Of a stretch of DNA of 64,000 nt, positions 2-49,967 are shown in pieces. Origin of the DNA: an uncultured Candidatus Saccharibacteria bacterium (lineage in GTDB: Bacteria > Patescibacteriota > Minisyncoccia > Phycocordibacterales > UBA9973); assembly GCA_964571085.1 (NCBI GenBank), contig CAZMZT010000001.1, positions 18,719 through 82,718 on the forward strand, in the 5' to 3' direction. Position numbers and translations under genes: made by a program. The notes under the pieces were generated by a model, which made no database searches, had not been told where the DNA came from, and saw nothing but the letters and a program-made list of their open reading frames with translations. Positions within the stretch are counted from its first letter, which is position 1, and every line of letters begins with the position of its first letter.

Positions 2-391
2 CACCGCACCCCAGATGTATTGTTTGAATATTCAAAGAAGGCACTTGCACGCGGGATAAAAGTTATCATCGCTGGGGCAGGAGGTGCTGCGCACCTACCG
101 GGTATGACTGCATCTATGACTCCACTTCCTGTGATAGGTGTACCTGTAAAAACCAAAACCATGGATGGGCTCGATTCACTGCTGTCTATTGCTCAAATGC
201 CACCCGGTGTACCGGTCGCTACTGTCGCGGTAAATGGTGCCAAGAACGCCGGACTACTTGCAGTACAAATGCTTGGCATGACTGATAAGAAACTTCAAAA
301 GAAAGTCGCTGACTACAAAAAGAAAATGAATACAGAAGTAAAAAGTAAATCAAAGAAGTTACATAAACTTGGCTATAAAAAATATGTCTGA
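2..391 (+). CDS. purE: N5-carboxyaminoimidazole ribonucleotide mutase PurE, 5'-truncated by the window edge. It has a Lys-rich C-terminal extension.
   Basis: The reading frame is open from the window start. Motifs '[21 protein letters not shown]...PVIGVPV' match the PurE core. A K-rich tail follows. Confidence 0.8.
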
Positions 392-29400: not shown

Positions 29401-32400
29401 TGGTGGAACAAATACACCACTTGGTACCACTGGTGGGGGAACACTTATCGCAAGTGGAGGAGCCCTAGATCTCAACGGTTTTACTCTGGGAACAGCTGAA
29501 GCTATAACATCTTTAGCAGGAACAGGTTTCGGTGCTTCTGGTAGTAGTAACATGGGTGCTATTATGAATAGCTCAGCTTCACCCGTGAGTTACAGCGGAG
29601 CTCTGACTCTTACCGCCGCCGCTCGTATCAATGCCGATGCTGGAGCTCTCACTATTAGTGGTAATGCATCAGGAAACTTTGCTCTAACTTTCGCTGGCTT
29701 TAGCAATGTTACTTATTCAGGAGTACGTTCTGGTACTAGTACTATCGTAAAAGTTGGAGTAAATACACTGACCCTTTCAAACGGAAGCTCGTCTTATACA
29801 GGTCTAACTACTATCAGTGAAGGTACTGTAAAAGTTGGCGCAGCATCAGTCGGTGGAACAAACTCACCGCTAGGCACAACTGGAGCTGCCACTACTGTAG
29901 CTCTCGGTTCTCGCCTTGATCTTAATGGATTTAACCTAGGAATAGCAGAACCACTAACTCTAAACGGTGTCGGGTATGGGCTCGGAGACTTTGCGAGTGG
30001 TGCTCTCATGAATAGCTCAGGAACTTCTGTGACCTATACTGGGCTTATCACACTCGGCTCGGCATCTACTATTAAAGCTGATTCAGGGAATATTAGCTTA
30101 ACAGCTGCTGGTACCATATCAGGGAATACTTTTGGTCTAACTATTGGAGGAGAGGGTACGGGCACACTTTCAAGTATTATAGGTACAACATCAGGAACAG
30201 TTACAAAAATAGGTTCTGGCACTTGGACACTTTCTGGACAGAGTACTTTTACTGGTGCGACATCTGTTAACCTTGGAACCCTAAAACTCGGAGTAAGTGG
30301 GGGAGCAACAAACAGTCCTCTCGGCACTACAGGTGCTGGTACGACTGTTTATACTGGTGCAGCTCTAGATTTCAATGGCTTTACTATGAGTACGGCCGAA
30401 GCTTTAGCGATTAATGGACGAGGAATTAATGACGGAGGAGCATTTATCGGGAGTAGTGGTACCTTTAGTGGCGCTATTACTCAAGGTACAGATTCTCGCA
30501 TTGTAAATGCTTCTGGAACATTGACACTTTCTGCTGCAGTTGGAGGAGCATTTGCTCTATATATAGGAGGTGCAGGTAATATTACTACTAGTGCTGTTTT
30601 TGCTGCAAGTGCTCTCTCTATTACAAAACAAGGTGCAGGGACTATGACTGTAACAGGAGCTAATTTATATACTGGAATCACACGTGTTGATGCTGGCACA
30701 TTTGCTTATGCAGCTACCACTACTCTTGTCGGTACAAACTTGATAATGAATGGAGGTACATTTAATAATGGAGCAAATGCTGACACTATCGGTACGGTCA
30801 CACTTATCGGTGGAGTTATTACCAACTCAGCAGCGCTCACAGCAGCGACTTCATATACTCTAGAGAGTGGAACTATTAGTGGAATTATCGCTGGTGCAAT
30901 TCCTGTAATAAAAAATACAAACAATACTGTTACACTCACTGGTGTGAATACTATAAGTAGTAGTACTACAATCAATGCCGGAACACTTACTATAAGTGGC
31001 TCAGGTTCAGCAACAGCCACTACTATTACTGTAAACCTAGGTGGTACACTAACTCTAGACAACAGTACCACTGCTGTCGCTAGTCGCCTGGGCGATGCGC
31101 TTGCCCTTACTATGAACGGAGGTAACTTCAACTTTATCGGTAATTCTGCTGCAGCTTCTTCTGAAACTACAGGAGCGCTCACTCTATCAACTGGTCATAA
31201 TGTGGTGACAGTTACTCCTGGTGCTGGAGGTTCAACAACTATGACGTTTGCAAGTCTTGCCCGTACGGCTGGAGCGACTGTCCTCTTCCGTGGTACAAGT
31301 TTGGGATCCAACGCAGCATCCAATGTTTCTACTCTAGTATTTACTGCTACACCAACCCTAACAGGGGCAGGTGGCGCGTCTGGGTCAGCGACAGTTAGTG
31401 TCATCAAGGGTGCATACGGCGATAGCTCTCTCTCTGGAACAGGTTCTGATATGGTTACATACCAGGGTGGAGTAGGACTCCGCTTGCTAAATGGCGCTGG
31501 ATTTGCCAATGAATACAGTGGTGACTTCCAAACTGCCAATGCCAATGTAAAGCTCACAGCTGACCGTCCAGCAGTAGCTACCAACACCAACTCACTCATA
31601 CTCAATGGCTTTAGTGTTACTAACCCTGGTGGAGCAGTTACAATACCCATGGCTTCTGCTTCGCTCGCTGGAAACATCCTGATCAACTCCGCAAACAACA
31701 TCGCTGGTGCAAACACAACTTTAGGTATTACAACATTTGAGCTTGATATCTTGGCTACAGCTAACTCCACCATCTCAGCTATTATCGGTACGGCAACGAC
31801 TGGTTCAGTAGTCTTGAGTGGGACTGGCAATGTCACCTTAAGCGCAGCCAACCCTTATACAAGTACAACATTTATTAACGGCGCCACTCTTACCGCTGGA
31901 GCAAGCAATGTGTTATCAAGCGGGGGAGTGACTATGAAAGGTGGTTTGTATAATCTCAATGGCAATTCAGATACTATAGGGGCTCTTACTCTTACTGCTG
32001 GTAGTGTATCTACAGGAGCAGGAACACTAACACTAGGAGGAACAGTGACAACTATAGCCAATGCCAACTTCACTTCACTTATAACAGGGAACTTGGGCCT
32101 CGGCGCAGCTAGAACATTTGATATTGGCGACGGGCTTATGGACAATGATGCGATTATTACTGCGGTAATAAGTGGTGCTTTCGCTCCAACAAAAAGTACT
32201 GGTGCCGGAGTGTTAATGTTTTCTGGCGACAATACTTACTCTGGTTTAACTACAATTAGTGCTGGAACATTACGTCTCGGTGCAGCTGGTGGAGTAACCA
32301 ACACACCACTTGGGACAACGGTTGCAGGAACAACAGTATCTGGTGCAAGCTCGGCCCTCGACTTGAATGGATTCACTCTAGGCACTACCGAGGCTCTGAC

Positions 32401-35400
32401 TTTATCTGGAGCTTTGGCAACAGGTGCACTACAAAATACTTCTAGTACATCTGTGAACTATAGTGGGCTAGTTACTCTGGGTGCTGCTAGTACTATTATT
32501 GCTAACTATGGAGATATAAATATTACAAATACTGGTAACATAACCGGTAACACATTTGGACTAACTATAGGAGGTGCAGGGAATGGAACACTCGCAAGCA
32601 ACCTAAATACTACAACTGGAACTCTAACAAAAAATGGCCTCGGCCTCTGGACTATATCTGGTGGAGCTAGTACATTTACAGGTCTTACTACTATCAGTGC
32701 TGGTACTTTAAAGCTCGGCTCTGCAGGGAGTGGGTCAAATACACCACTCGGTACAAATGCCGGGGGAATCACTATCACCTCTGGAGCGGTCTTTGATGTT
32801 AATGGATTCACTTTAGCTACAGCAGAACCAATTGGATCTTTGAATGGAACAGGTCTTGCAAGTATTGGGGCCTTTATAAATAGTTCCAATAGCAGTGTGT
32901 CTTATAGTGGTGCAATTACTCTCGGCACAGCCTCCCGTATTGTAAATCATGGTACTGGAACTATGACAATAAGTGGCAATATCTCAGGAAACTTTGCCCT
33001 TACAATAGTTGCTGTAGGTAATTTTACTCAGGCTACTAATAGTGTTCGCTCAGGTTCTAGTACAATAATAAAAGAAGGATCAGGTACATTAATTTTAGGA
33101 GGGCAGAATAGCTTCACTGGTGCTGTTACGGTAAGTACTGGAAAGCTCCAGCTTGGAGCAAATGGAGGTGTAACAAATACTCCGCTTGGTACCATAGCAG
33201 GAGGTGTGATTGTATCTGCTGGAGCAGTTCTAGATCTCTCTACTTTTACAGCTGGTGGAGCTTCAACTTGGGAGCCTCTAACTCTAGCTGGTAGTGGTAT
33301 CCTAAACGGCGGAGCACTGATAAGTAACTCTTCAACTGGCAGTACTTTCGCCACTGTTGCCCAGACAACTACACGCATTGTAAACAATGGTGCAGGGACC
33401 CTTACATTTACAGGAGCAGTTACTGGAGCTTCTGCTCTTTGGATAGGTGGAACAGGTAATACGACAATATCAGGAGCACTAAACACTGCTGGTATTCTGC
33501 TTACTAAATACGGTGCTGGTAGTCTGACTCTAAGTAGTGCTGTAAATATAAACACCTCACTCGTTCGTATTAACGAAGGGACACTTGTCTACGGAGTAGC
33601 CGATGCACTATCTACACCACCCGTAACTATAGCTGGAGGAACTCTAAATTTGAATGGATTCAATGAAACCAACATCGGGTTGATCACTATGATCGATGGA
33701 TCTATTGTGAATACTGGGGGAGCAGGAACATTAGTCTCTACAGCAACAGCTACTGTTGAAAAAGGCACAATCAGCGCTGTGATTGCTAGTACAGTATCAA
33801 CATTACTTACAAAAAACAGCGCCGGGAGATTCATAATGTCAGGTAACAATACTTTTACAAGTACTGCTATTACATTTAATGCTGGGTATATAAAACTTCA
33901 ACATAGCAACGCACTCGGTGCTGCTGGAACTGCACTTGCATCCACTATTTCTGCTGGGGCAACTCTAGAGCTTGAAAATGGTATTACAATACCAAGCACC
34001 AAAACCATAACAGCCAATGGTACTGGTATGATCAACACTGGTGCTATTAGAAATGTAAGCGGCACAAACTCGATAGGAGCAAACCTGACTTTAGGATCAA
34101 CCAACGTACGTGTGAACTCGGACAGCGGAGCTCTTACTATACCTACGGTGTCTGGTAACACATTTAACTTGATAGCCGGTGGTGCTGGAGACACAGCGAT
34201 CACTGGTGCGATCAGTACGACAAGTGGAAATCTGACTAAAGATGGTGCTGGTACACTCACACTTTCTGGAGTCAACACATTTTCTCGTGCTACAAATATA
34301 ATTTCTGGAACAGTTGTAGCCAACTCTACTAGTGCACTTGGTGATGCAAGCTCTACCAACACTTTGATTTTCAACGGTGGAACATTGCAAGCTTCAGGAG
34401 ACATCACATCTATATCTAGTCGTGCAGTAACCTTAAACTCAGGCGGGGGCACTATCGATACAAATGGTAACGCCGTAAGTATCGCCGGAACTGTAGGATC
34501 AATAGGAGGACTCACTAAAACCGGGGCTGGTACTCTGATCATAACTGGGGTCACTACTATCGGCGGGGACCTGACTATTTCTACAGGTACTTTTGTAGCA
34601 CCAACAAGTCTAACTATAAGCGGTGACCTCGATAATAGTGGCACATTTACGCATAGTAACGGTACTGTCACTATAGTACCTACAAGTCCTACACTCACTA
34701 CAAACATCCTAGGTAGTTCTGATACTACTTTCTATAATTTCACTAATACTACTGCTGGCTCAACTCTACAATTTAGAGAAGGCAACACTTATACTTTTGC
34801 AAATGTCTTCACACTGACAGGAGCTGACGGGAACCCTATCTCGATAAACTCTGACACTCCTGATTCACAATGGCTTATGACGCTGTCAGGCTCAGCTTCT
34901 ATGTCTTATATAAAAGTAAAAGACAGTGGTTGTGTTGGTGGTAACAATGTAGGAGCGAGTAGCACTATAATCGATTACGGTAACAATGGCTCATGTTGGC
35001 AATTTATTGCTGTAATTAAAAGTGGTGGTGGCGTTGTTGAAGCTTCTGCTCCTCCAGATGGAGATGTCGGTGGTGGTGGAGGAGGAGGTAGCGGTGGTGG
35101 AGGAGCAACCAATGCAATAGCTACCGCAGTAGTGTCTTCTAATGTTGTACAGAGTGTCACTATAAATGCTGGAGGTAGTGGTTATACATCTGTACCAACT
35201 GTACTATTTTGTGGCGGTGGTGGAACTGGAGCTCTTGGAACCGCAGTTCTGACTAGTGGGGCAGTGTCTAGTGTTACAGTAGATAATGGGGGATCAGGAT
35301 ATTCTAGTGCCCCTACTGTAGTATTCAATAGTAACTGTCCTACAACTGGTGGAGGCGGCGGTGGAGGCGGCGGTGGCGACATAGGGTTCATATATAAAAT

Positions 35401-35461
35401 AAAGCGAATGTTTGCTTTCTTAGAAAATTTTGGCTTTAATAGTATTAAAAATTATATATAG
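26489..35461 (+). CDS. Giant (2990 aa) secreted protein with autotransporter-associated beta-strand repeats (PATR), a putative adhesin. It uses a GTG start.
   Basis: A signal peptide is present. The N-terminal 'IRTWTGTASGSWSNPSNWGGTAPVTGDDLVFPG' is the classic PATR lead-in. It has dozens of 'TLTLSG.N.YTG.TTI..GTL.LG' repeats. No C-terminal beta-barrel, LPXTG or TM was seen. Confidence 0.8.
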   Translation: MKKFFVNSIKLFAIIFIVGFLCFGFKPSNADAAIRTWTGTASGSWSNPSNWGGTAPVTGDDLVFPGGASNLSNTNDLIENTIINSITLSGSGYTLSGNSIILGPGLAGITDSASSGGNTIALNIRLGATRDIIVTNTAETLTISGTIAGVGGINKEGTGKIVLSGGNKFGGILKINVGVVNAQSNTALGTIAAGTEVVGGAALELQGNIDISYEALALRGYGVSNTGALRNISGTNTYRGLITLSSAGGTEIASDSGTLTITGGTTGNAPLVFDGSGNMVFSTAPIAGSGAITKNGSGTVTYNFPNTNTGLLTINAGTILYGVDNAILTSAITITGGTLDVATYSDMVGTVTLGTLDLASGTITGSTGILSSAAFTLYNGTISAIIAGDGGALTKSTTGTVVITRPNQYTGATTISAGILEIQDSTSLGLIDGITTVAAGATLQINGDGLSIPEYITFSGTGHLYTGAIRNRTGDNTLTGLLTLGAAAMIESDVSTTLTIDSKGLSATTLGLTVGGAGNTTFTSTAPIYGTSATLTKNDTGVLTIESFSNFTGATNLLRGEVVLGSYGAIPRSTITIGSGGELTLDNTSTTILDRVSDTAALTMNGGSLNFIGNPSSLASETIGALTIASGHNTVTVTPGAGGPTTMTFASLSRTAGATVLFRGTKLGSSPGPNISTIMFTTTPAVLGAGGAAGTTTTSVIKGAFGDNSLSGTGSDMVVHNLGNTNGLRLLNGAGFSGEYAFTLATNANVKLNADTVASTASINSLILDGFSITNPGSAQTITLSSGSLAGNILMNSATSIAGANTTLGITTNHLDILTTASATISAVIGTAVAGSVAISGTGSVTASTANLYTGTTFINNATLFAGATNILSSGGVTVVGGTYDLGNFSDTVGAVTLQNGTITSGSGTLSGTSYSLREGTVSAILGGGAAAVTRVATSAAADSVVTLTRDNTYTGTTTITSGILRLGATGGGTNTPLGTTGGGTLIASGGALDLNGFTLGTAEAITSLAGTGFGASGSSNMGAIMNSSASPVSYSGALTLTAAARINADAGALTISGNASGNFALTFAGFSNVTYSGVRSGTSTIVKVGVNTLTLSNGSSSYTGLTTISEGTVKVGAASVGGTNSPLGTTGAATTVALGSRLDLNGFNLGIAEPLTLNGVGYGLGDFASGALMNSSGTSVTYTGLITLGSASTIKADSGNISLTAAGTISGNTFGLTIGGEGTGTLSSIIGTTSGTVTKIGSGTWTLSGQSTFTGATSVNLGTLKLGVSGGATNSPLGTTGAGTTVYTGAALDFNGFTMSTAEALAINGRGINDGGAFIGSSGTFSGAITQGTDSRIVNASGTLTLSAAVGGAFALYIGGAGNITTSAVFAASALSITKQGAGTMTVTGANLYTGITRVDAGTFAYAATTTLVGTNLIMNGGTFNNGANADTIGTVTLIGGVITNSAALTAATSYTLESGTISGIIAGAIPVIKNTNNTVTLTGVNTISSSTTINAGTLTISGSGSATATTITVNLGGTLTLDNSTTAVASRLGDALALTMNGGNFNFIGNSAAASSETTGALTLSTGHNVVTVTPGAGGSTTMTFASLARTAGATVLFRGTSLGSNAASNVSTLVFTATPTLTGAGGASGSATVSVIKGAYGDSSLSGTGSDMVTYQGGVGLRLLNGAGFANEYSGDFQTANANVKLTADRPAVATNTNSLILNGFSVTNPGGAVTIPMASASLAGNILINSANNIAGANTTLGITTFELDILATANSTISAIIGTATTGSVVLSGTGNVTLSAANPYTSTTFINGATLTAGASNVLSSGGVTMKGGLYNLNGNSDTIGALTLTAGSVSTGAGTLTLGGTVTTIANANFTSLITGNLGLGAARTFDIGDGLMDNDAIITAVISGAFAPTKSTGAGVLMFSGDNTYSGLTTISAGTLRLGAAGGVTNTPLGTTVAGTTVSGASSALDLNGFTLGTTEALTLSGALATGALQNTSSTSVNYSGLVTLGAASTIIANYGDINITNTGNITGNTFGLTIGGAGNGTLASNLNTTTGTLTKNGLGLWTISGGASTFTGLTTISAGTLKLGSAGSGSNTPLGTNAGGITITSGAVFDVNGFTLATAEPIGSLNGTGLASIGAFINSSNSSVSYSGAITLGTASRIVNHGTGTMTISGNISGNFALTIVAVGNFTQATNSVRSGSSTIIKEGSGTLILGGQNSFTGAVTVSTGKLQLGANGGVTNTPLGTIAGGVIVSAGAVLDLSTFTAGGASTWEPLTLAGSGILNGGALISNSSTGSTFATVAQTTTRIVNNGAGTLTFTGAVTGASALWIGGTGNTTISGALNTAGILLTKYGAGSLTLSSAVNINTSLVRINEGTLVYGVADALSTPPVTIAGGTLNLNGFNETNIGLITMIDGSIVNTGGAGTLVSTATATVEKGTISAVIASTVSTLLTKNSAGRFIMSGNNTFTSTAITFNAGYIKLQHSNALGAAGTALASTISAGATLELENGITIPSTKTITANGTGMINTGAIRNVSGTNSIGANLTLGSTNVRVNSDSGALTIPTVSGNTFNLIAGGAGDTAITGAISTTSGNLTKDGAGTLTLSGVNTFSRATNIISGTVVANSTSALGDASSTNTLIFNGGTLQASGDITSISSRAVTLNSGGGTIDTNGNAVSIAGTVGSIGGLTKTGAGTLIITGVTTIGGDLTISTGTFVAPTSLTISGDLDNSGTFTHSNGTVTIVPTSPTLTTNILGSSDTTFYNFTNTTAGSTLQFREGNTYTFANVFTLTGADGNPISINSDTPDSQWLMTLSGSASMSYIKVKDSGCVGGNNVGASSTIIDYGNNGSCWQFIAVIKSGGGVVEASAPPDGDVGGGGGGGSGGGGATNAIATAVVSSNVVQSVTINAGGSGYTSVPTVLFCGGGGTGALGTAVLTSGAVSSVTVDNGGSGYSSAPTVVFNSNCPTTGGGGGGGGGGDIGFIYKIKRMFAFLENFGFNSIKNYI
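28241..29225 (+). repeat. Copy 1 of a roughly 320-aa intragenic duplication within the PATR gene.
   Basis: It is protein-level collinear with 31052..32045 ('...ALTMNGG.(L/F)NFIGN....SET.GALT...GHN.VTVTPGAGG.TTMTFASL.RTAGATVLFRGT...'). Nucleotide identity is roughly 75%. Confidence 0.7.
31052..32045 (+). repeat. Copy 2 of the intragenic duplication.
   Basis: See copy 1. Confidence 0.7.
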
Positions 35462-35530: not shown

Positions 35531-36031
35531 ATGGAAGATAAAAACACAATTAAAATAAACGCTCTTCCTTATGTAGAGGAGCCTCCTACCGTTCCTGGGC
35601 TAAAACCTAAAAAGAGATCAATGTCCAAGCAAAAACTTATAAATAGGGTGTTGTTGGTAGTCTTGTTGATAGCGATAGGTTTCGGGGGGTATTTTTACTA
35701 TAGACTCAGCTCTCTACAAAAGAACCCTACAGCAGAAGCTTCCAAGGAAGCAAAAGACCTGCTCGGCAGGGTAGCAAAGATCTACCTTATCCCAACCGGA
35801 GAAGAGCCAACAGTAGCAACCGTCTCTGACCCAGAAAAGTTGAAAGACCAATCGTTCTTCTCTGGAGCACAAAAAGGAGACAAAGTACTTATATTTTCAC
35901 AGTCAGGCAAAGCCGTGCTATACAGACCTAGTATAAACAAGATCATTGAGGTTGCTCCTATAAATAATAAAAATGATAAACCAACAACACAAGAAAAATC
36001 AACAGGTCCTCTTCAAGACAAAACATTTTAA
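35531..36031 (+). CDS. Single-pass membrane protein (N-in) with a roughly 100-aa extracytoplasmic domain. It is the first gene of the surface cluster.
   Basis: A TM helix 'VLLVVLLIAIGFGGYFYY' follows a basic stretch. Confidence 0.5.
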   Translation: MEDKNTIKINALPYVEEPPTVPGLKPKKRSMSKQKLINRVLLVVLLIAIGFGGYFYYRLSSLQKNPTAEASKEAKDLLGRVAKIYLIPTGEEPTVATVSDPEKLKDQSFFSGAQKGDKVLIFSQSGKAVLYRPSINKIIEVAPINNKNDKPTTQEKSTGPLQDKTF

Positions 36032-37061
36032 TTGGATATTGGTTACAGTATTTGCCCTGTCTTCTTTTTATCCAATTTTCAACATATATGCGGCTCTTTC
36101 TTGTACTGTAACTACACAGGCATCATGTAATGGAAGTGGATATACCACACTTCTACGCATGTCTGGATCTACTAATGCTCACTCTGAACTCCCGAGTCAG
36201 TCCAATGTCAACTATGACGACGATGTAGTGTGTTGTTCTGGTGTTTCAACTATTGGTAACTCATGTAGTGCTTCTAACAAGCAAATATTTGCACGCATCT
36301 CAGGTTCGACAAATGGAACTATACAAGAGACAAGTGTAAACACTTACGGCACCAATGTCTGTTTGTCTGACTCTGTAGAGAACGACACTATCACTGTCGG
36401 TTATCAGAACTCCAACTGCTCTGGTTATGACACTACACTCGCTTCTATTTCTAGTTCAGACAATGCCCATGTAGGGGATGGCAGTGCATACACAAGGAAA
36501 ATCTGTGCGACGATAGTACAGCCAACTATAACTTTCGACCTCGACACTGCATCTGACTTTACAAATGGTGAGTCGACCGCTCCATACTTAGTTGAGCTTG
36601 GGGCTCTTTCTACTGGATCTGTAAATAATTCCAATGGGTCTAGCGTACGTATGATAGTAGCCGAAGGAGAAACCAATGCACCGGGTGGAATGGTAGTGAC
36701 TGTATATAATGCAGGTGGTGCTGATGGGCTACGGTCGGCATCGGTACCTACTGACAAGATTCCAAGCACTACAGGAACTATGTCTGCGGGTACAGCTCGA
36801 TACGGACTATGTGTTGCGACATCTGGACTTACAGGATTTTCTAGAGCAACAGGGTACAGTAGCGATTCTTGTTCACTAGGTTCTGGAACCAATGGTGTAA
36901 GGGCACTCTCATCAACTCCTACAGACATATTGAACTCAGGAGGTGGAACGCTGTCCGGTGGACATGCTGAAATAGTGGTCAATGCGACAATAAGCCCTAC
37001 AACTCCTTCTCATAATGACTATGAAGACTCACTTACATTCATTGCCACAGGGACTTTCTAG
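35973..37061 (+). CDS. Secreted beta-rich Ser/Thr/Gly-rich protein, paralog A. It is a candidate pilus/fibre subunit.
   Basis: A signal peptide is present. The C-terminal ~170 aa align with the 37182 product and both end in 'NDYxDxITFIATxTF'. The 5' end overlaps the upstream gene by 59 nt, so the true start may be downstream. Confidence 0.6.
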   Translation: MINQQHKKNQQVLFKTKHFNWILVTVFALSSFYPIFNIYAALSCTVTTQASCNGSGYTTLLRMSGSTNAHSELPSQSNVNYDDDVVCCSGVSTIGNSCSASNKQIFARISGSTNGTIQETSVNTYGTNVCLSDSVENDTITVGYQNSNCSGYDTTLASISSSDNAHVGDGSAYTRKICATIVQPTITFDLDTASDFTNGESTAPYLVELGALSTGSVNNSNGSSVRMIVAEGETNAPGGMVVTVYNAGGADGLRSASVPTDKIPSTTGTMSAGTARYGLCVATSGLTGFSRATGYSSDSCSLGSGTNGVRALSSTPTDILNSGGGTLSGGHAEIVVNATISPTTPSHNDYEDSLTFIATGTF

Positions 37062-37181: not shown

Positions 37182-38408
37182 ATGAAAATATTGAAATTCA
37201 AGTCATCAGTGCTGTCAAAGGTTGCAAGTTCTATTACTATGGTCGCCCTAATCCTTGTAACTTCAGGTGGCCCACAGATCGCAGAAGCTTTGGCTATCAC
37301 ATCATCAAAAGACACAGCTACTCGTCTACAGATCAGTACTACAGCTGACCATACTATAGTATTCACACTCCCGACTGGTATTGACTTTGATTCTGCTGGT
37401 AACACTGACTTCCTCCGTGTTGATTTTCCTGGTACTTTTACTGCTGGAGGCACTTGGGCTGCTGGAGACTTCACTTTCGATGATGGTGCTGCAAGAACTA
37501 TAAATGCTGTTGAACAAGGTGCTGGTGATGTAGACTGTACAGTCGCTGCCGGTGTAAACAACGTATGTATTTCTGTTGACACAACCAATAATATTTTCAC
37601 TATTAAACCATCAGCTACATATACAGCATCAGCAACAGGAGCAACTGTTACATTTACGATCGATGGAACAACTGCAGACGGTACACTCACAAATCCTTCT
37701 TCTGTAGCAGCTACAAACATAGATTTTCAACACTGTGACAACGTGGCTGCTTGTGACTCAGCGTTTGCTTCAACTCACTCAAGTCAGATAGCTTACGCTA
37801 TTATCGATGACGACACTGTAGCCATCACAGCAACGGTAGGCTCTTCAATTACTTTTGACCTAGACACAGCAGGAAGTAATGACAGTACATGCGATACAGA
37901 CGAGACAGCAGCACCATACGCTATAGCCCTCGGAGCAATATCAACGGCAGATACTAGAATATCTGGTGCTACAGATGCTGTAAACCTTATCTGTGTAGAC
38001 CTCGATACTAATGCTGGTGGTGGAGCAGTAGTCACAGTTTCAAACGCGAACGGAGCAAGTGGTCTGGTCTCTACTTCTAGTCCAACAAATGACATAGATA
38101 CTACCGATAACACTGCTGTTACTGCTGGTACTGAAAACTATGGTCTATGTATTGTTACAACTACAGCAGGTACTGGTACACTCGATGATGAAGGAGGATA
38201 TGATGGCGACACTTGTGCTGCCAATAGTGCGACTAATGTCGTACAAGCCATGTCTGCAGTCACTCCTGAGACTATCTTTGATACAAATGGTGCCCCTATA
38301 GCAGGCGGACGTGGAACAATAGCTGTAAATGCTTCAATTGCCACAGGTCAAGCGGCTCTCAATGACTATACTGACGCTATTACATTTATAGCGACTGCTA
38401 CATTCTAA
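37182..38408 (+). CDS. Secreted beta-rich protein, paralog B of the 35973 product.
   Basis: A signal peptide ending 'AEALA' is present. Shared blocks include 'ITFDLDTA...APY...LGA(L/I)ST', 'GG.VVTV.NA.GA.GL' and 'YGLC' plus the C-terminal 'ITFIATATF'. Confidence 0.6.
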   Translation: MKILKFKSSVLSKVASSITMVALILVTSGGPQIAEALAITSSKDTATRLQISTTADHTIVFTLPTGIDFDSAGNTDFLRVDFPGTFTAGGTWAAGDFTFDDGAARTINAVEQGAGDVDCTVAAGVNNVCISVDTTNNIFTIKPSATYTASATGATVTFTIDGTTADGTLTNPSSVAATNIDFQHCDNVAACDSAFASTHSSQIAYAIIDDDTVAITATVGSSITFDLDTAGSNDSTCDTDETAAPYAIALGAISTADTRISGATDAVNLICVDLDTNAGGGAVVTVSNANGASGLVSTSSPTNDIDTTDNTAVTAGTENYGLCIVTTTAGTGTLDDEGGYDGDTCAANSATNVVQAMSAVTPETIFDTNGAPIAGGRGTIAVNASIATGQAALNDYTDAITFIATATF

Positions 38409-38429: not shown

Positions 38430-39455
38430 ATGAATAACTACCAGAACAACAGAGGACGATTCGCACTCTTGATTTTAATCATTGCTGTTTTCTTTGTTTC
38501 GAAAAATGCTCATGCTCTCAGCTTGTCTCCTGTACGTGTAGAAGTCAGTGGTAACCCAGGCGAGACAGTCACCAGGGAGATGGTCATCACCAATGAGAGT
38601 GAAGGTAGCTCAATATACTACTCTTCATATGCCAACTTCGAAGCCTCAGGTGATACCGGTAGTCCAGCATTCGTAGAGCCAAAAGATGATATAGGTACAT
38701 GGCTCTCTACAACTGCATCTATAGACTTGAAAGCCAATGAGTCAAAGACCGTTACATTCAAAATAGAGATTCCTAAAGATGCAGAACCAGGAGGACACTT
38801 CGGATCAATATTCTGGGGTACAAATCCAAACAATGGCTCAAGCGGGGTGGCTGTAGGTTCAAAGACAGGTATACTCATACTTCTTTCAGTTAATGGTGAT
38901 GTAAAAGAAGCTGGAGGCCTCGTCGACTTTAATACCAAAGACAACAAAATCTTTTACAACACTCTCCCGGTGTCTTTTACTTATAGGTTTCGTAACGATG
39001 GAGGTGACCGTATAAAACCAGTAGGCAAGATAGTAATGCATGATCTGTTTTATATACCAGAAGATAAAATAGATGCAAACCCAGGTGGAGGCAACATACT
39101 TCCATCAAGCACTCGACGCTTCAACGTTGACTGGGTCAAGGATCCACGAGCGAAGGACTATGTAGCACCAAGTGGTGTAGTAGGTAAGTTCTTTGGCCAA
39201 GCAATATACCAGTGGAACAACTACGCCTTTGGCCCATATTTTGCCAAGCTCAACCTGCTGTACAGTACAGATGCTATAAGAGTAAAAGACACAGTTTTCT
39301 TCTTTGTTTTTCCTTGGCAATTATTAATATGCCTTGCCATTATTTTCTTCACTGTATTTTGGGGCGGCAAAAAACTAATTCGACGCTATAACAAGCATAT
39401 TATACAGAAGGCACGTCTTGGCATGAACAAACCAAACGATGCCACTCATGTATAG
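38430..39455 (+). CDS. Secreted Ig/chaperone-like beta-domain protein with a C-terminal TM anchor and basic tail.
   Basis: A signal peptide is present. 'LSLSPVRVEVSGNPGETVTREMVITNESEGS' resembles PapD-like or DUF916-like Ig-fold openings. The C-terminus has a TM 'LLICLAIIFFTVFW' plus 'KKLIRRYNKH'. Confidence 0.5.
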   Translation: MNNYQNNRGRFALLILIIAVFFVSKNAHALSLSPVRVEVSGNPGETVTREMVITNESEGSSIYYSSYANFEASGDTGSPAFVEPKDDIGTWLSTTASIDLKANESKTVTFKIEIPKDAEPGGHFGSIFWGTNPNNGSSGVAVGSKTGILILLSVNGDVKEAGGLVDFNTKDNKIFYNTLPVSFTYRFRNDGGDRIKPVGKIVMHDLFYIPEDKIDANPGGGNILPSSTRRFNVDWVKDPRAKDYVAPSGVVGKFFGQAIYQWNNYAFGPYFAKLNLLYSTDAIRVKDTVFFFVFPWQLLICLAIIFFTVFWGGKKLIRRYNKHIIQKARLGMNKPNDATHV

Positions 39456-40305
39456 AAAATCTCTAACTAAATTCATATTACTCGTCTTGTTCTTTTTTGC
39501 TGTATCGCATACAGTTTACGCTGTGGATGTGGGGGTATCTGCTTCTGTGGGTACCATAACTATTACTCCGACTGATGATGGTGGAGGAGGGATAGACACA
39601 AGTGTTGTATTCTCTGGACTTGCTTATCCTGGCGCCACTGTCCATATATGGAAAGACGGAATTCCTTCACAGGTGGTTATGGCAGATGCAAATGCTCGCT
39701 TTAGTGTTACGCTTTCTGAAACATATAACCCAAGTGTACTGTATACTCTATATGCCATAGATAAGTCTGGGCGTAGATCACTACTTATCAACTATCCTCT
39801 GGTGGTTAAAAACGGCTATGTGACCCAAGTAAGTGGTATCAGATTTGCCCCAACTATCACTACAGATAAAAGTGAGGTAAAATTTGGCGACTATATAACA
39901 GTATCTGGCTACTCTGTACCAAACACATATATAGACGTCGTTATATCAGGATCAGTAAGTTCGACTTACTATGTCCAAAGCAAACCTGACGGAGTTTATC
40001 AGATTACAATACCACTTATAGGTTTTAAAAAGGGTGCATACGATGTATATTCTAATTACCAAAATGATAAGAAGATAAGTAAAGTCATAAAGTTTGTTAT
40101 TGGAGATGTAAATATATTGAGCATCGACCTCACTACAAATATCCCAGGAGATTGTAATGCCGACCAGATTATAAATCTTGTCGATTTCTCTGTGGTTGCC
40201 TTTTGGTATGGGAAGCCAAATCCACCAAAGTGTGTCGACACAAATTCTGACAAAGTCATAAACCTTACCGACTTCTCAATACTCGCATTTTATTGGACTG
40301 GGTAA
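39439..40305 (+). CDS. Secreted protein with two Ig-like repeats and a C-terminal dockerin domain.
   Basis: Two calcium-binding loop repeats, 'DCNADQIINLVD' and 'DTNSDKVINLTD', fit D-x-N-x-D-x-x-x-N-x-x-D. Each is followed by a hydrophobic helix ('FSVVAFWYG' / 'FSILAFYWTG'). Confidence 0.6.
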   Translation: MPLMYRKSLTKFILLVLFFFAVSHTVYAVDVGVSASVGTITITPTDDGGGGIDTSVVFSGLAYPGATVHIWKDGIPSQVVMADANARFSVTLSETYNPSVLYTLYAIDKSGRRSLLINYPLVVKNGYVTQVSGIRFAPTITTDKSEVKFGDYITVSGYSVPNTYIDVVISGSVSSTYYVQSKPDGVYQITIPLIGFKKGAYDVYSNYQNDKKISKVIKFVIGDVNILSIDLTTNIPGDCNADQIINLVDFSVVAFWYGKPNPPKCVDTNSDKVINLTDFSILAFYWTG

Positions 40306-40325
40306 TGTATAATGTTTATATAACT

Positions 40326-41201
40326 ATGAAGATACTTATCTACACTATAGCCATTTTCTTACTAACCTCATCTGTGTCTCATGCAGCTCTGGTGTCTGTA
40401 TCTGCACCAAAGGTTGCTACAGAAGGACAGGATTTTAGTGTTTTGGTTAATCTTAATACAGAAGGCGCATCTGTGAACTCTTTTGATATAAAGTTATCGT
40501 ACCCTGTAGATGTAGTTTCATTCTCTGGCTACAAAGAAGAAGGATCCATCAAGCGCCTATGGCTAACATCACCAGTAGACAAAGGTGGGGAAATACACTT
40601 TAGTGGGATTATACCTGGTGGGGTAGATGGGATGTATGATCCTGATAAAAAAGAACTACAACCAATACCTCTTTTGCATTTATTATTTTCTACAAGAGAC
40701 GTAGGTCAAGGAAGCTTTACTATAAAAGAATCAAGTATTCTTATTAACGATGGTAAAGGTACATCACTAATCCACACTAGAATTGATTCACCTATAAGTG
40801 TATCTAAATCACTAGATTCATCTTATGATAAGAATTCCACTCGCATTAAATCAGCAGACACAGTGCCACCCCTGCCTTTTGTTATAGAATTCATAGAAGC
40901 AGGTCTATTCTCGAGGACACCGTCTATGATTGTCTTTTCTACTACAGACGCAGAATCAGGCGTGAAATCTTATCAACTTCGCGTAGCAGGTGATAATTGG
41001 GAAGATATATCAAGTCCAACACCTATAAGTAAGGGCCTTGTAAAAAGGGACGTAGTAGTTAGGGCGGTAGACTTCGGAGGCAATATACGTGAGTCAAATG
41101 TAGAAATACCTGGTATACTTTCTAATATACAGCTTATAGGGATAGTACTTATAGGTTTTGTTTGTTACTTTGTATTTTTTGTGTTAAAAAGGAAAAGATG
41201 A
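40326..41201 (+). CDS. Membrane-anchored protein with an N-terminal cohesin-like domain.
   Basis: A signal peptide is present. 'ALVSVSAPKVATEGQDFSVLVNLNTEGASVNSFDIKLSYPVDVVSFSG' matches the cohesin pattern V.V.....G..F.V.V.......V...D..L.Y...V. The C-terminus has a TM 'LIGIVLIGFVCYFVFFVL' plus KRKR. Confidence 0.55.
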   Translation: MKILIYTIAIFLLTSSVSHAALVSVSAPKVATEGQDFSVLVNLNTEGASVNSFDIKLSYPVDVVSFSGYKEEGSIKRLWLTSPVDKGGEIHFSGIIPGGVDGMYDPDKKELQPIPLLHLLFSTRDVGQGSFTIKESSILINDGKGTSLIHTRIDSPISVSKSLDSSYDKNSTRIKSADTVPPLPFVIEFIEAGLFSRTPSMIVFSTTDAESGVKSYQLRVAGDNWEDISSPTPISKGLVKRDVVVRAVDFGGNIRESNVEIPGILSNIQLIGIVLIGFVCYFVFFVLKRKR

Positions 41202-42313
41202 AATTCTACATAAAAACAATACTATATAGTTTTTTTATAGTCGTATTGTTTAGCACTACGAGTGTGTTTGCAGCACCTGCATCACTGTCCATAACTAAAC
41301 CATCTGGTAGTGTACAAGAAGGAGATCGGGTCACACTAAGTATTAAAGTAGAGTCTACTGACCAAGCTATCAATGCCATATCTGGAGTTGTATCATTCTC
41401 TGAAGATACTCTAAAGACTATATCTGTAAGTAGGGATAGTAGCATATTAAACATCTGGACCCGGGATCCTAATGTAGGTAGGAATAAGGTCACATTTGAA
41501 GGTGTAATACTCAACCCTGGTTATAGGGGAGCTGGTGGGACACTTTTCAATATTACATTTGAAGCCAAGAAATCTGGTCGAGCTACTGTTTCTTTTACTG
41601 AAGGAGCAATCCTTGCCAATGACGGACTTGGTACTAATGTCATAAGTGGACTTTCATCTATCAATTTTAATATTACTCCAGGTGCTGGGGCTCTAGACTT
41701 GTCTGGGGTGCCTATCGCCCAAACAACACCAAGGAGACTACAAGCATTGCCGGTCATTACTGAGTATTCACAATCAGTTTATTCTAAACAAACTGCTTAT
41801 CTAAGGGGTAGAGGAGAGCCAGGCGCTATGACAAAAATTTCCTTTGAAGATCTATCGCAGAAATCTTTCGGAGAACAATTCTTGGACTTTGTTCAATCAA
41901 AAAAGAAACGCCTTAGTGATGTCCTTGTCCAAAACAATGAAAAAGGTTTATTTGAATATGTCACACCCAACAACCTAATAGCAGGGGTATACAACGCCAC
42001 CCCATTCCTAGTTGAAGATGATACAAACATAGAAAAGCCTGGTCTCGGTGTTCAGCTTTTTGTAAATGACAGCAAGATAGTCAAAGGCTTGATAGTCTTT
42101 ATAAATATACTCCTCCTACTTATACCAATAGTTGGGCTTATAATGCTTATTTACTTTATCCCGTGGTATTCGTCACGCCGTATGCGTATTATGAAGAGAC
42201 GCATGGGTCTCGAAGAAGAGAAGATTATACTCACCGAGCATCATTTGGAGCATGAAGATAAGCTCTTATATAAAGACCCGCTAGAAAACACAAATACTGA
42301 AAAAAGCAGTTAG
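41198..42313 (+). CDS. Second membrane-anchored cohesin-like protein.
   Basis: Its ATG overlaps the upstream stop as ATGA. 'ASLSITKPSGSVQEGDRVTLSIKVESTDQAINAISGVVSFSEDTLKTISV' is cohesin-like. A C-terminal TM and a basic 'SSRRMRIMKRR' stretch are present. Confidence 0.55.
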   Translation: MKFYIKTILYSFFIVVLFSTTSVFAAPASLSITKPSGSVQEGDRVTLSIKVESTDQAINAISGVVSFSEDTLKTISVSRDSSILNIWTRDPNVGRNKVTFEGVILNPGYRGAGGTLFNITFEAKKSGRATVSFTEGAILANDGLGTNVISGLSSINFNITPGAGALDLSGVPIAQTTPRRLQALPVITEYSQSVYSKQTAYLRGRGEPGAMTKISFEDLSQKSFGEQFLDFVQSKKKRLSDVLVQNNEKGLFEYVTPNNLIAGVYNATPFLVEDDTNIEKPGLGVQLFVNDSKIVKGLIVFINILLLLIPIVGLIMLIYFIPWYSSRRMRIMKRRMGLEEEKIILTEHHLEHEDKLLYKDPLENTNTEKSS

Positions 42314-42332: not shown

Positions 42333-43412
42333 ATGAAGCGACCATATATCCTGCTGACCTCTCTATACCTTATTGCCATACTTAGTTTCCCTCTTTTAGG
42401 TAATGCTGAGAGTAAAATACTTAACCTAGAAGAGAATTTGTGGCTCAGATCTCGCAACAACACCATTGTCGTCTATCCTGAAAAGAATTTCCCCCCATAT
42501 TCTTATCAAAACTCTTCAGGAATACCACAGGGTCTGTCCATAGACTATATCGAAGTGATAGCTCAGAAAATAGGAGCAAAGATCCAGTATTTACCTGCTC
42601 GTTCTCGATCTCAAATACTTGATGATGTAAAACAAAGCAGTAAAGGAGATGTGATTACATCTTTAGCTGACACAAAAGATAGGGGAGATATACTGTATTT
42701 CTCAGATACTTATGTCACTACTCCAGCTGTTATTGTTGTAAGAAAAGATTCGAATAAGAACAATCTAACCCTCAACGACCTGACTGGTAAAAAGGTCGCT
42801 ATTGGTGGTCAATATGCAGTTGAGGAATTCGTGAGAACTAATAATCCTAGGATTGTCATTGAGTCCGTCAGCGACAACGAACTTGGTTTACAGCAAGTAG
42901 TTCTAGGCGAGGTGGATGCTGCTATTATGGATATTACATCTCTGTCTTATTACTTATCCAAACAAGTTTTAAATAGTGTTAAGGTTGTTGGTAGCACTGG
43001 TTTTGACTACAAACTCTCGTTTGCTGTACCAAAAGACAAGCAGATACTCCAATCAATCCTCGATAAAGGATTACAACAAATAAGCACTAATGATAGGCAA
43101 ATAATCAAAGATAAATGGGTAGTCGTACCAAACGAAATAAACAAAACTTCATTAATCTCCTCCTATATTTTAGACAATCTAATATCTATAATCTTGTATC
43201 TGATACTTTGTGTCATAATAGTTATCCTCATTATACGACTAAGGAAGAGGAGATTTACATTTAGAAGGCATAGTCATCTAGATGAGGTAAAAGAATTGAA
43301 AGAAGAGATGCTCGAACTGGAAGACACCAGTAAAGGCCTGATAGAAGAGCTAAATAACGTTAAAATCTTGGAGGAAGACATAAAAGAAAAAATAAAGAAG
43401 ATAGAAAATTAG
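42333..43412 (+). CDS. Membrane-anchored SBP_bac_3 (periplasmic-binding-protein type 3) domain protein with a short cytoplasmic coiled-coil tail.
   Basis: A signal peptide, an SBP fold ('LTGKKVAIGGQYAVEEF...EVDAAIMD'), a TM 'IILYLILCVIIVILII' and a tail 'ELKEEMLELEDTSKGLIEELNNVKILEEDIKEKIKKIEN' are present. Confidence 0.65.
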   Translation: MKRPYILLTSLYLIAILSFPLLGNAESKILNLEENLWLRSRNNTIVVYPEKNFPPYSYQNSSGIPQGLSIDYIEVIAQKIGAKIQYLPARSRSQILDDVKQSSKGDVITSLADTKDRGDILYFSDTYVTTPAVIVVRKDSNKNNLTLNDLTGKKVAIGGQYAVEEFVRTNNPRIVIESVSDNELGLQQVVLGEVDAAIMDITSLSYYLSKQVLNSVKVVGSTGFDYKLSFAVPKDKQILQSILDKGLQQISTNDRQIIKDKWVVVPNEINKTSLISSYILDNLISIILYLILCVIIVILIIRLRKRRFTFRRHSHLDEVKELKEEMLELEDTSKGLIEELNNVKILEEDIKEKIKKIEN

Positions 43413-43463: not shown

Positions 43464-44537
43464 ATGAAATCAGCTTTCCTATACGTATTCTTGGCAGTAT
43501 TTGTCATAAGTCCTATATCTACTATATACGCCCAGTCTAGTTTACTTACTAAAGAAGAAAACATATGGCTTAGCTCAAGGAATAACACCATCTCTGTTTT
43601 ACCAGAGAAGAACAACCCACCATTTTCTTTTAATGATTCTTCTTATATAACCCAGGGTATTTTCATTGATTATATTAAACTTGTAGCAGAGAAGTTGGAC
43701 TTAAAGATAGATTATATTACTGCTCGTACAAGATCTGATGTTTTAAAAAGTCTAACATCATCTGAAGGTGATTATGTATCAAGTATAGAAGTTGATAAGG
43801 CCAAGGAACTATCTCTTGATTTTAGCGATCCCTACTCTACATTTCCTGTAGTTATAGCTGTTCGTAAAGATTACTCATCTCATGATGGTATGACTCTCGA
43901 TGAGTTTAACAACAAAAGTGTTGCCGTAATACAAGGCTCTGCTATCAGTTCATATATCAAAAGCAATTACCCACGTGTGATAGTCGAAGAAGTCGTAGAC
44001 AACGAACTTGCCCTACAGAAAGTAGCTCTCGATGAAGTGGATGCTACAGTTATGAATGTTGCGTCTCTGACTCATCTACTGTCTAAGCAATCAATGCGTA
44101 GTATTAAAGTTGCAGGGAGTATAACATTTGATTTAAAGATGGCATTTGCAGTCCCAGAAGGGAAGGCAATACTCAGCTCTATTTTAAACAAAGGATTAAA
44201 CCAAGTAAGCGCGAGAGAGCATCAAGATATCATAGATAAATGGATATTGTTGCCAAATGAGAAGCATACAGCTAATTCATTTTTCTCAGGCATAGCTCAT
44301 CATCCAGGCCTTACTATAGTCATTGTTATTTTAGTAATTATTGTATCTACAGTATTGATATTTATAAGACGAAAAATGCCACACATACATAATCACAATA
44401 AAGGAGTAGGAACAAATATGATCAGTGAGCTAGAGCAAGAGATCATAGAACTTGAGCATACAAGCAAAGGTTTAATAGAGGAACTCAATGAAGTCAAAGC
44501 TTTAGAGCAAGACATCAAAGATAAACTAAAGAATTAA
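43464..44537 (+). CDS. Tandem paralog of the SBP_bac_3 membrane-anchored protein.
   Basis: It shows roughly 45% identity along its whole length to the 42333 product, including the coiled-coil tail 'ELEHTSKGLIEELNEVKALEQDIKDKLKN'. Confidence 0.65.
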   Translation: MKSAFLYVFLAVFVISPISTIYAQSSLLTKEENIWLSSRNNTISVLPEKNNPPFSFNDSSYITQGIFIDYIKLVAEKLDLKIDYITARTRSDVLKSLTSSEGDYVSSIEVDKAKELSLDFSDPYSTFPVVIAVRKDYSSHDGMTLDEFNNKSVAVIQGSAISSYIKSNYPRVIVEEVVDNELALQKVALDEVDATVMNVASLTHLLSKQSMRSIKVAGSITFDLKMAFAVPEGKAILSSILNKGLNQVSAREHQDIIDKWILLPNEKHTANSFFSGIAHHPGLTIVIVILVIIVSTVLIFIRRKMPHIHNHNKGVGTNMISELEQEIIELEHTSKGLIEELNEVKALEQDIKDKLKN

Positions 44538-49899: not shown

Positions 49900-49967
49900 T
49901 AGGCAGTTGGTAGTAAGTTGAGAAACTCTTGCTACTTTCTACATACTTCGTACTACATAATTATATT

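Follow-up and report, generated by a model that had tools for sequence, protein, structure and literature searches.

Among the described systems closest to the one presented here are the anchoring scaffoldins, the WxL clusters of Firmicutes and a single dockerin protein from a saccharibacterium. Anchoring scaffoldins are exemplified by SdbA, OlpB and Orf2p of Clostridium thermocellum, which carry SLH domains, and by ScaE of Ruminococcus flavefaciens, which carries a sortase signal. In the WxL clusters a WxLIP protein holds WxL-domain proteins with variable N-terminal domains and, by prediction, inserts one of its strands into WxL (PMC10599100). The saccharibacterial protein, SEML1_0315 of Southlakia epibionticum, is an envelope protein with a dockerin domain that was reported as essential (PMC10633639). 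Here we describe a locus within 64,000 nucleotides of DNA (assembly GCA_964571085.1, contig CAZMZT010000001.1, positions 18,719 to 82,718 of the forward strand; this whole stretch is referred to as the window) recorded as coming from an uncultured Candidatus Saccharibacteria bacterium, in which the gene for a secreted dockerin protein, p4 (doc288), is followed by those for two cohesin proteins with transmembrane (TM) helices, p5 (coh298) and p6 (coh371). We consider that these three proteins probably form a cognate, non-cellulosomal cohesin–dockerin set that tethers a secreted stalk to the cytoplasmic membrane of ultra-small Paceibacteria, which belong to the Candidate Phyla Radiation (CPR), for surface display.

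An original prediction, made from the sequence alone, had placed one secreted dockerin protein and two TM-anchored cohesin proteins at 39439-42313, and this arrangement is borne out by the open reading frames (ORFs), by Pfam and by the predicted folds (Table 1). The TTG starts called mechanically for these ORFs are probably too early; gene calls on identical public contigs start p5 at the ATG at 40305 and p6 at the ATG at 41198. With these starts the p4 stop and p5 start overlap as TAATG and the p5 stop and p6 start as ATGA, and p4, p5 and p6 all begin with a hydrophobic, signal-peptide-like segment that closes in a small-x-Ala motif.

A dockerin is defined by two tandem segments of ~22 residues, each a 12-residue, EF-hand-like calcium loop with Asp/Asn at positions 1, 3, 5, 9 and 12 followed by a helix, and this is what is found at the C-terminus of p4. 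The first calcium loop is DCNADQIINLVD (40150-40185) and the second is DTNSDKVINLTD (40237-40272). When all six frames of the 64-kb window were translated and searched with the pattern D-x-[ND]-x-[DN]-x2-[IVLMT]-[NDST]-x2-D, these two loops were the sole tandem pair to fit it, with one unrelated single match elsewhere. In the AlphaFold 2 (AF2) model of p4, built from a 115-sequence alignment with a mean predicted local distance difference test (pLDDT) score of 87.7, helices at residues 247-255 and 276-287 each directly follow a loop, in a block with pLDDT 84-94, such that the two F-hand loops with their helices that had been read in the 288-residue protein are indeed present. Ahead of them the model has, in order, the helix of the signal, a short N-terminal strand, a Gly-rich linker modelled at low confidence and two β-sandwich domains (residues 54-123 and 128-222).

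Comparison with Pfam gives a match of p4 residues 236-283 to Dockerin_1 (PF00404) of 20.6 bits (E 5e-4), where the gathering score is 22.9 bits, and 94 of 115 p4 orthologues match the same entry at E <= 0.01, the best at 4.9e-7. The stalk region matches Big_6 (E 7.8e-5 for p4), as do 111 of the 115 family members. Searched against the PDB, the profile of the p4 family finds the dockerin 2y3n_B at E 2.1e-5, with 5nrm_B and 2vn5_B weaker. A Foldseek search with the whole p4 model returned only Bap-like and other immunoglobulin (Ig)-like tandems; no dockerin is among these matches because a 60-residue dockerin is too small to surface in such a search.

The dockerin is also the most conserved part of p4, with a mean column conservation of 0.80 against 0.62-0.65 for the Ig-like domains, and 34 of its 60 columns are at least 90% conserved. 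All 115 orthologues keep D238, C239, N240, D242, D249, C265, D267, D271 and D278, and the ligand positions of the loops are 95-100% conserved, the one exception being loop 2 position 9 (N in 78, D in 36). Both repeats share the consensus I-N-L-V-D-F-S-[VI]-L-A-F-[WY]-[YW]. Of the two invariant cysteines, Cys239 (40153-40155) is position 2 of loop 1 and Cys265 (40231-40233) lies two residues ahead of loop 2; a disulfide between them may hold the two repeats together, which would be unusual in cellulosomal dockerins. The description of p4 as a textbook type-I dockerin thus holds in part: it is a duplicated dockerin, but it scores below the Pfam threshold, has an atypical cysteine pair, and its type is assignable only from its partner.

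The cohesins of p5 and p6 required more than one line of evidence. Both proteins had been proposed to open, after a signal peptide, with a cohesin-like domain of ~140 residues, and this is confirmed for p6 by Pfam and for p5 by fold and profile. The match of p6 to Pfam Cohesin (PF00963), at 26.1 bits, exceeds the gathering score of 24.1; p5 itself has no Pfam match. The Pfam comparison suggested with the original prediction therefore gave one Cohesin match above the gathering score, none for p5, and a Dockerin_1 match just under it for p4. Across the families, Pfam Cohesin is matched at E <= 0.01 by 14 of 81 p5 orthologues and 13 of 115 p6 orthologues, and it is because of these few matches, together with the sub-threshold Dockerin_1 score, that we regard the cohesin and dockerin domains here as divergent. 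In PDB searches with the sequence profiles of both cohesin families, cohesins were the only or top N-terminal matches but were not significant (E 0.2-0.8), and the cohesin calls therefore depend on fold and profile–profile evidence.

That evidence is consistent. The AF2 model of p5 (pLDDT 92.9) has nine main strands within residues 28-167, and cohesins make up nearly all of its top 21 PDB matches in Foldseek. First among them is 2w1n, the cohesin–FN3 pair of Clostridium perfringens GH84C (E 2.3e-10), whose domain order is that of p5, followed by the cellulosomal cohesins 1g1k, 2vn6 and 6kgc; single-module matches have TM-scores on the target of 0.60-0.81, that of 2vo8 being 0.81. The first ~150 residues of p5 align to p6 by BLASTP (E 6e-9), and in hhalign the two family profiles align over their N-terminal ~150 residues with a probability of 99.6% (E 6.6e-24), from which p6 is predicted to share the cohesin fold of p5. 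In the p5 family, strand 6, strands 3-5 and the loop 8-9 are where conserved residues concentrate. Across 115 orthologues of p6, mean conservation is 0.80 for the TM helix and 0.76 for the middle domain but 0.66 for the cohesin, and YFIPWYS..RMR, a cytoplasmic motif next to the membrane, is nearly invariant. Such conservation of TM and juxtamembrane residues above that of the cohesin is unusual for a simple membrane anchor, and p6 is more than a passive one. Both proteins had been expected to finish with a TM helix and basic residues; this is exactly so for p5 (KRKR), whereas in p6 the TM helix and basic stretch are followed by ~50 further conserved cytoplasmic residues.

The three genes do not stand alone. 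They had been described as a minimal module, but the trio is the core of a conserved envelope operon of seven to eight genes, in many cases with a giant protein ahead of it. Across 84 loci of public genomes the gene order is fixed as [often a giant ORF], s166, f362/f408, w341, doc288, coh298, coh371 and SBP_bac_3, and within it the order doc-coh-coh never varies. By BLASTP, doc288 was detected in 84, coh371 in 79, coh298 in 78, w341 in 60, SBP (after coh371) in 44 and s166 in 34 of these loci. Intergenic gaps are mostly < 30 nt or negative: the 4-nt overlap of coh298 and coh371 recurs in 29 of 73 loci, and w341 overlaps doc by 8 or 17 nt in 26 of 59, the overlap in this window being 17 nt. A hydrophobicity scan gives each product of the operon a signal peptide, a TM helix or both. 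On either side are housekeeping genes, with pheS/pheT upstream of the giants and gyrB, thrS, nusB, rnc, smc and rpoB downstream of the operon.

Each of p4, p5 and p6 has hundreds of relatives, those of p4 occurring in 363 GTDB species genomes in a scan of one genome per GTDB species. In the records of this organism the three are 'hypothetical'; named relatives are 'dockerin type I domain-containing' or 'cohesin domain-containing' proteins from Patescibacteria/Paceibacterota metagenome-assembled genomes (MAGs), and the informative record names (Paceibacteria, Nomura-, Kaiser-, Lloyd- and Vogelbacteria, Minisyncoccia) all belong to the Paceibacteria/Parcubacteria. Many TPA_asm MAG records that carry the operon (L009-L088) are titled 'uncultured Candidatus Saccharibacteria', 'Gammaproteobacteria' or 'Bacteroidia', and these generic labels look unreliable because gene content and synteny fit Paceibacteria. 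The domain assignment itself is already known, in that the NCBI pipeline labels some orthologues as cohesin- or dockerin-containing; the operon is not described in the papers found by a literature search.

The dockerin is restricted to the doc288 family. When family hidden Markov models (HMMs) were run against all ORFs of the 84 loci and the window, the dockerin was found only in doc288 orthologues and the cohesins only in the two cohesin genes. A phmmer search with the 61-residue dockerin against 1.84 billion representatives gave 223 matches at E <= 1e-10, and the best 150 of these are almost all proteins of 200-570 residues with the dockerin at the extreme C-terminus. From this distribution the dockerin looks like the dedicated plug of one protein family and not a tag spread over many cargo proteins. 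The giant proteins had been put forward as further dockerin carriers, and this idea fails: those in the window have no loop motif, none is among the best 150 dockerin matches, and no HMM match at E <= 1 was found in those of the window or in any upstream giant ORF of the 84 loci.

What the stalk might carry is suggested by relatives in which a head domain has changed its mount. Upstream of p4 lie f362 and f408, acidic, Thr/Ser/Ala/Gly-rich secreted paralogues whose C-terminal 230 residues are 42% identical (E 8e-38). Among the top 149 dockerin representatives, 13 carry an f362/f408-type head ahead of the Ig-Ig-dockerin. The heads of two of these, P0326 and P0072 (432 residues each), are 61% and 58% identical to f362 residues ~32-187 (E 4e-58 and 2e-56), and the f408 head type is likewise present on dockerin proteins. 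P0072 and p4 share 56% identity over Ig-Ig-dockerin; for P0326 the comparison with p4 covered the dockerin alone. Along the P0072 contig the order is pheT, g3240-like, head-Ig-Ig-dockerin, coh298-like, coh371-like, SBP, and the contig lacks s166, f362, f408 and w341.

The same pattern is seen across loci with at least 4.5 kb upstream of doc. Type A loci (43) have f408C-domain proteins and w341, the latter in 43 of 43, with a median of 67 residues before the first Ig-like domain of doc and a head on doc in none. Type B loci (16) have no f408C-domain proteins, and w341 is missing in 15 (L086 keeps one); here the median is 204 residues before the first Ig-like domain and a head was detected in 10 of 16. 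The Fisher p of 1.3e-7 for this contrast in heads is only nominal, because the loci are phylogenetically related and not independent. The same head domains thus have two mounts, the dockerin stalk and the '...TFIATGTF' C-terminal domain, the latter always together with w341. Since the f362 head is fused to Ig-Ig-dockerin in relatives without f362, f408 and w341, the heads are the likely cargo, carried by the dockerin stalk or by a second anchor domain. This fits the proposal made with the original prediction that the set displays another surface component rather than cellulases.

At the mature N-terminus of p4 lies a conserved strand ('V.VSA.VG', ...GTITITP), after which comes the low-pLDDT Gly-rich linker. 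The strand is loosely like that at the head/stalk junction of the head-fused relatives (...CGTITSTIVTPP), and p4 may therefore be a head-deleted stalk, or its N-terminal strand may be used for strand complementation.

The second anchor is described by features of f362, f408 and w341. The f362/f408 C-terminal domains (~200 residues; 36459-37058 and 37806-38405) end in ...NDY.D..TFIATGTF. No Pfam match was found for this domain in 59 family members, and its comparison with PDB profiles gave only TolA noise and a poly-ubiquitin repeat artefact. An assignment as WxL, a C-terminal domain with two W-x-L motifs, was considered and found no support in the sequences, there being no Pfam WxL match, no conserved Trp and no W-x-L in the consensus ...DY.DTLTFIATGTF. 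The f362 head has no relative in Pfam or the PDB. It contains three internal repeats, '..SGSTNAH....Y...VC', and six Cys are among its many columns invariant in 11 relatives; judged from sequence, the three-fold repeat of ~45 residues might be a trefoil-like binding domain. The w341 protein has the layout of a WxLIP, with a signal peptide, a β-rich ectodomain of ~255 residues and a TM helix. It matches WxLIP_PGBD at 21.9 bits (E 1.8e-4; cut-off 27.3 bits), and 29 of 55 orthologues give the same weak match; its best PDB sequence match is EfmWxLIP1 (E 0.25), and it has no match to DUF3324 (HBD), the Ig-like domain that accompanies DUF916 (PGBD) in WxLIP proteins.

What the sequences and models establish is the identity of the domains, the signals for export and anchoring, a conserved and translationally coupled operon, a dockerin confined to one family, and heads exchanged between two types of anchor. 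From these we propose the following mechanism. The three proteins p4, p5 and p6 would be exported through their Sec signal peptides, p5 and p6 being held in the membrane by their C-terminal TM helices with the cohesin at the distal end of each ectodomain, while p4 would be released and then caught when its dockerin binds, in a calcium-dependent way, the p5 cohesin, the p6 cohesin or both. Because the two repeats of p4 are near-identical, binding in a dual mode, or of one cohesin per repeat, is possible, and the stoichiometry could follow either. Ig-Ig-dockerin would serve as a stalk for variable N-terminal heads, which as the functional cargo would probably bind a ligand or host. In this genome the stalk is headless and the head types sit on f362 and f408 with another C-terminal anchor domain, for which the WxLIP-like membrane protein w341 is the likely partner. 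Headless p4 would then cooperate with w341 and f362/f408 in one complex, to which its N-terminal strand may contribute, such that the operon would build a single membrane-anchored surface complex, plausibly for adhesion or host contact. The conservation of the p6 TM helix and tail, and the presence of TM-anchored SBP proteins with tails, suggest that the membrane part is a specific multi-subunit assembly.

Several points weigh against this proposal. The Dockerin_1 score of p4 falls below the Pfam gathering score, no more than 13-14 proteins of either cohesin family match Pfam Cohesin at E <= 0.01, the similarity of w341 to WxLIP is sub-threshold, and the f362/f408 C-terminal domain has no similarity to WxL. 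Contact between cohesin and dockerin is predicted from conserved synteny with the two cohesin genes, and either p5 or p6 could be the partner. The contrast between Type A and Type B loci may reflect few evolutionary events, further dockerin proteins may exist in the genome beyond this 64 kb, and it is not obvious what a headless stalk would do by itself in this genome.

Of the alternatives, the one that survives best, and which we would call possible but on balance unlikely, is that f362 and f408 are subunits of a layer or filament, with w341 and the p4–cohesin complex as its membrane base and with the N-terminal strand of p4 inserting into f362/f408 or w341 by strand complementation. In its favour are the last strand of f362/f408, which ends ...Y.D..TF.AT.TF in a pilin-like pattern, the conserved 'V.VSA.VG' strand and low-confidence Gly-rich linker at the mature N-terminus of p4, the constant company of f408C-domain proteins and w341 where doc is headless, and the precedent of the WxLIP strand predicted to insert into WxL (PMC10599100). 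The resemblance of a short Thr-rich strand is nonetheless weak, and f362/f408 have no similarity to known pilins, S-layer proteins or WxL.

It is improbable that the likeness is one of fold only, the domains being cohesin- and dockerin-like without binding each other and the three products being independent, co-transcribed envelope proteins of a Ca-binding, Ig-like structural or glycan-binding kind. Dockerin-like and cohesin-like modules are widespread outside cellulosomes, with many partners unknown, and the sequence scores here are marginal. Against this, the doc-coh-coh order is strictly kept with overlapping start and stop codons, and the dockerin, set against the remainder of p4, is near-invariant. 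Such an explanation is also hard to sustain in the head-fused relatives, because there the operon shrinks to little beyond head-stalk-dockerin and two cohesins.

A role in transmembrane sensing, in which p6 and the TM-anchored SBP_bac_3 proteins form a receptor that relays p4–cohesin engagement or a ligand inward, seems a little more improbable still. It would account for the p6 TM helix (0.80) and YFIPWYS..RMR motif exceeding the cohesin (0.66) in conservation, and for SBP proteins that have cytoplasmic tails but no adjacent ABC permease or ATPase and whose gene follows coh371 in 44 of 84 loci. None of the operon products, however, contains an output domain such as a kinase or cyclase, the tails, at ~50 residues, are short, and conservation of the TM helix is equally explained by packing in a multi-subunit anchor.

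Finally, a mini-cellulosome, with the cohesins as scaffoldin-like anchors that recruit dockerin-bearing polysaccharide-degrading enzymes encoded elsewhere, has the two folds in its favour and a view of the genome restricted to 64 kb, but we reject it as highly improbable, since each protein has one cohesin, the one dockerin protein is non-catalytic, the carriers of this dockerin subtype are almost exclusively short Ig-Ig proteins whose heads are non-enzymatic, the trio is kept 1:1:1 over hundreds of species with reduced genomes, the 84 loci hold no extra dockerins or cohesins, and no glycoside hydrolase (GH) or carbohydrate-binding module (CBM) family was found by Pfam among the products of 32 window ORFs, nearly all of its plausible genes, the lack of GHs being as first predicted.

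If p4, p5 and p6 are indeed a cognate set that tethers a stalk, a broader claim can be made, which we offer tentatively and regard as unlikely to hold in every part. The operon would then be a lineage-wide modular display apparatus of Paceibacteria with interchangeable heads and two anchoring devices, serving as a host-attachment platform and as the first cohesin–dockerin joint of a core envelope structure. In the first device the Ig-Ig-dockerin stalk would plug into two TM cohesins paired as a heterodimer; in the second a WxLIP-like TM protein would hold a novel C-terminal domain. The interchangeable, uncharacterised heads could include the Cys-rich three-repeat one, which may be a lectin or host receptor binder. 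Were this so, it would, with the adjacent giants, be the long-sought host-attachment platform of these episymbionts, and the first case of cohesin–dockerin as a core, housekeeping-linked envelope joint instead of an accessory to polysaccharide degradation.

Other genes of the window touch on the operon to varying degrees. Both SBP_bac_3 paralogues start with a signal peptide and carry, after a C-terminal TM helix, a cytoplasmic tail that is acidic and coiled-coil-like, and no ATP-binding cassette (ABC) permease or ATPase gene adjoins them. The giants are tied to the operon by synteny only, a co-directional ORF of at least 1000 residues being found upstream of it in 26 of 46 related loci. An ORF of 314 residues at 49929-50873 is a fusion of NusB (residues 20-149) and NUDIX (residues 201-294), found likewise in the Paceibacteria loci L007 and L008. 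A 544-residue protein on the minus strand (53825-55459) fuses PGA_cap, for capsule synthesis, to a VanY D-Ala-D-Ala carboxypeptidase, and is an envelope gene near the operon. A promoter and terminator scan over 34.5-45 kb gave counts at or below the shuffled expectation and was thus uninformative, and in the whole window no tRNA gene was found by ARAGORN and no Rfam family at the gathering threshold.

Table 1. Features of the operon and its neighbours, with positions in the 64-kb window
Feature	Position	Strand	Residues	Description	Basis
g3240	15611-25333	+	3240 in all	Giant surface protein	No Pfam match
Beta-lactamase2 / Peptidase_S11-like protein	25349-26299	+		TM-anchored, between the giants	
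g2990	26489-35461	+	2990 in all	Giant surface protein, 9 PATR repeats, poly-Gly run near C-terminus	
s166	35531..36031	+	TM helix 36-54	Small, N-terminal TM helix; first conserved operon gene	
f362	35973..37061	+	Head ~32-187	Secreted; Cys-rich head and C-terminal domain (...TFIATGTF)	
f408	37182..38408	+	Head ~36-190	Secreted; head and ~200-residue C-terminal domain (...TFIATATF)	
w341	38430..39455	+		Signal peptide, two beta domains, C-terminal TM helix	Weak, sub-threshold WxLIP (DUF916) similarity
p4 (doc288)	39439..40305	+	288 in all	Secreted	ORF, Pfam, AF2
p4 signal peptide			1-28	...VYA/VD (cleavage at the slash)	
p4 N-terminal strand and linker	39523-39597		29-53	Conserved strand and Gly-rich linker	
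p4 Ig-like domain 1	39598-39807		54-123		
p4 Ig-like domain 2	39808-40110		124-224		
p4 dockerin	40123-40302		229-288	C-terminal	
p4 Ca loops	40150..40272	+		Both loops with intervening helix/linker	Regex, column conservation, profile match
p5 (coh298)	40305..41201	+	298 in all		AF2, Foldseek, hydrophobicity scan
p5 cohesin	40383-40805		27-167	Signal peptide before, linker after	
p5 FN3-like domain	40887-41108		195-268		
p5 TM helix	41124-41195		274-297	C-terminus ...FVLKRKR	
p6 (coh371)	41198..42313	+	371 in all	With signal peptide	Pfam, hhalign, domain conservation
p6 cohesin	41276-41677		27-160		
p6 middle beta domain	41744-42085		183-296	Conserved	
p6 TM helix	42086-42157		297-320		
p6 cytoplasmic tail	42158-42310		321-371		
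SBP_bac_3 protein, first	42333-43412	+			Pfam, E 8e-21
SBP_bac_3 protein, second	43464-44537	+			Pfam, E 7e-18

The CPR, or Patescibacteria, make up a large share of bacterial diversity and most are thought to live attached to hosts, with surface and contact proteins that are almost all annotated as 'hypothetical'. What this locus adds is that a whole class keeps a dedicated cohesin–dockerin trio, one dockerin to two TM cohesins, beside the housekeeping genes pheST and gyrB in an operon of exported proteins. Also new are the anchoring of cohesins by a TM helix, the link to a WxLIP-like second anchor and the head swap that points to the likely cargo. The result is a concrete, testable model for how surface modules are mounted on CPR cells, with candidate binding partners named, and it widens the known uses of cohesin–dockerin pairs beyond cellulosomes and clostridial toxins. 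A conserved dockerin and two small cohesins would, in addition, be easy to express and test, and could serve as an orthogonal protein–protein connector.

Compared with known systems, p5 most resembles the non-cellulosomal modules of C. perfringens toxins and glycosidases, NagJ/GH84C (2w1n) and GH33 (2vo8), in which a single cohesin occurs per protein and, in 2w1n, is followed by FN3, with a sequence identity to p5 of just 7-12%. Those modules are found on large secreted enzymes and join enzymes together, whereas in this locus small TM-anchored proteins carry the cohesins, and the dockerin belongs to an enzyme-free Ig-Ig stalk. The cellulosomal type I cohesins of Clostridium cellulolyticum (2vn5/2vn6, 1g1k) and Clostridium acetobutylicum (6kgc) have a nine-strand jelly roll like that of p5, and cellulosomal dockerins such as 2y3n_B of Pseudobacteroides cellulosolvens have, as p4 does, two 12-residue D-x-N-x-D...N..D loops with helices. 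The near-identical repeats of p4 resemble those of cellulosomal dockerins with a dual binding mode, but p4 differs in its invariant Cys pair and very hydrophobic helices (LVDFSVLAFWY), and the locus differs from cellulosomal systems in having no multi-cohesin scaffoldin, CBM, enzymes or X-module and in using a TM-helix anchor.

The WxL/WxLIP (Csc) clusters share with this operon a set of secreted paralogues, like f362/f408, that have a common C-terminal domain and variable N-termini, and one protein, like w341, with a signal peptide, two Ig-like domains and a TM helix. As f362/f408 show no W-x-L motif or WxL match, and WxL clusters have no cohesin–dockerin genes, the relationship of f362/f408-w341 to them is one of analogy and not of membership. 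SEML1_0315 is likened to p4 by architecture, both being envelope proteins of Patescibacteria with Ig/FN3-like and dockerin domains, the former in a non-cellulolytic epibiont, but it is the 927-residue product of a lone gene with no adjacent cohesin genes, in a different class. With the anchoring scaffoldins the locus appears to share its role, in that a cell-bound cohesin captures a dockerin and keeps the complex at the surface. It differs in that a C-terminal TM helix replaces the SLH domains or sortase signal, that two single-cohesin anchors serve one dockerin protein, and that the TM helix and cytoplasmic tail of p6 are themselves highly conserved.

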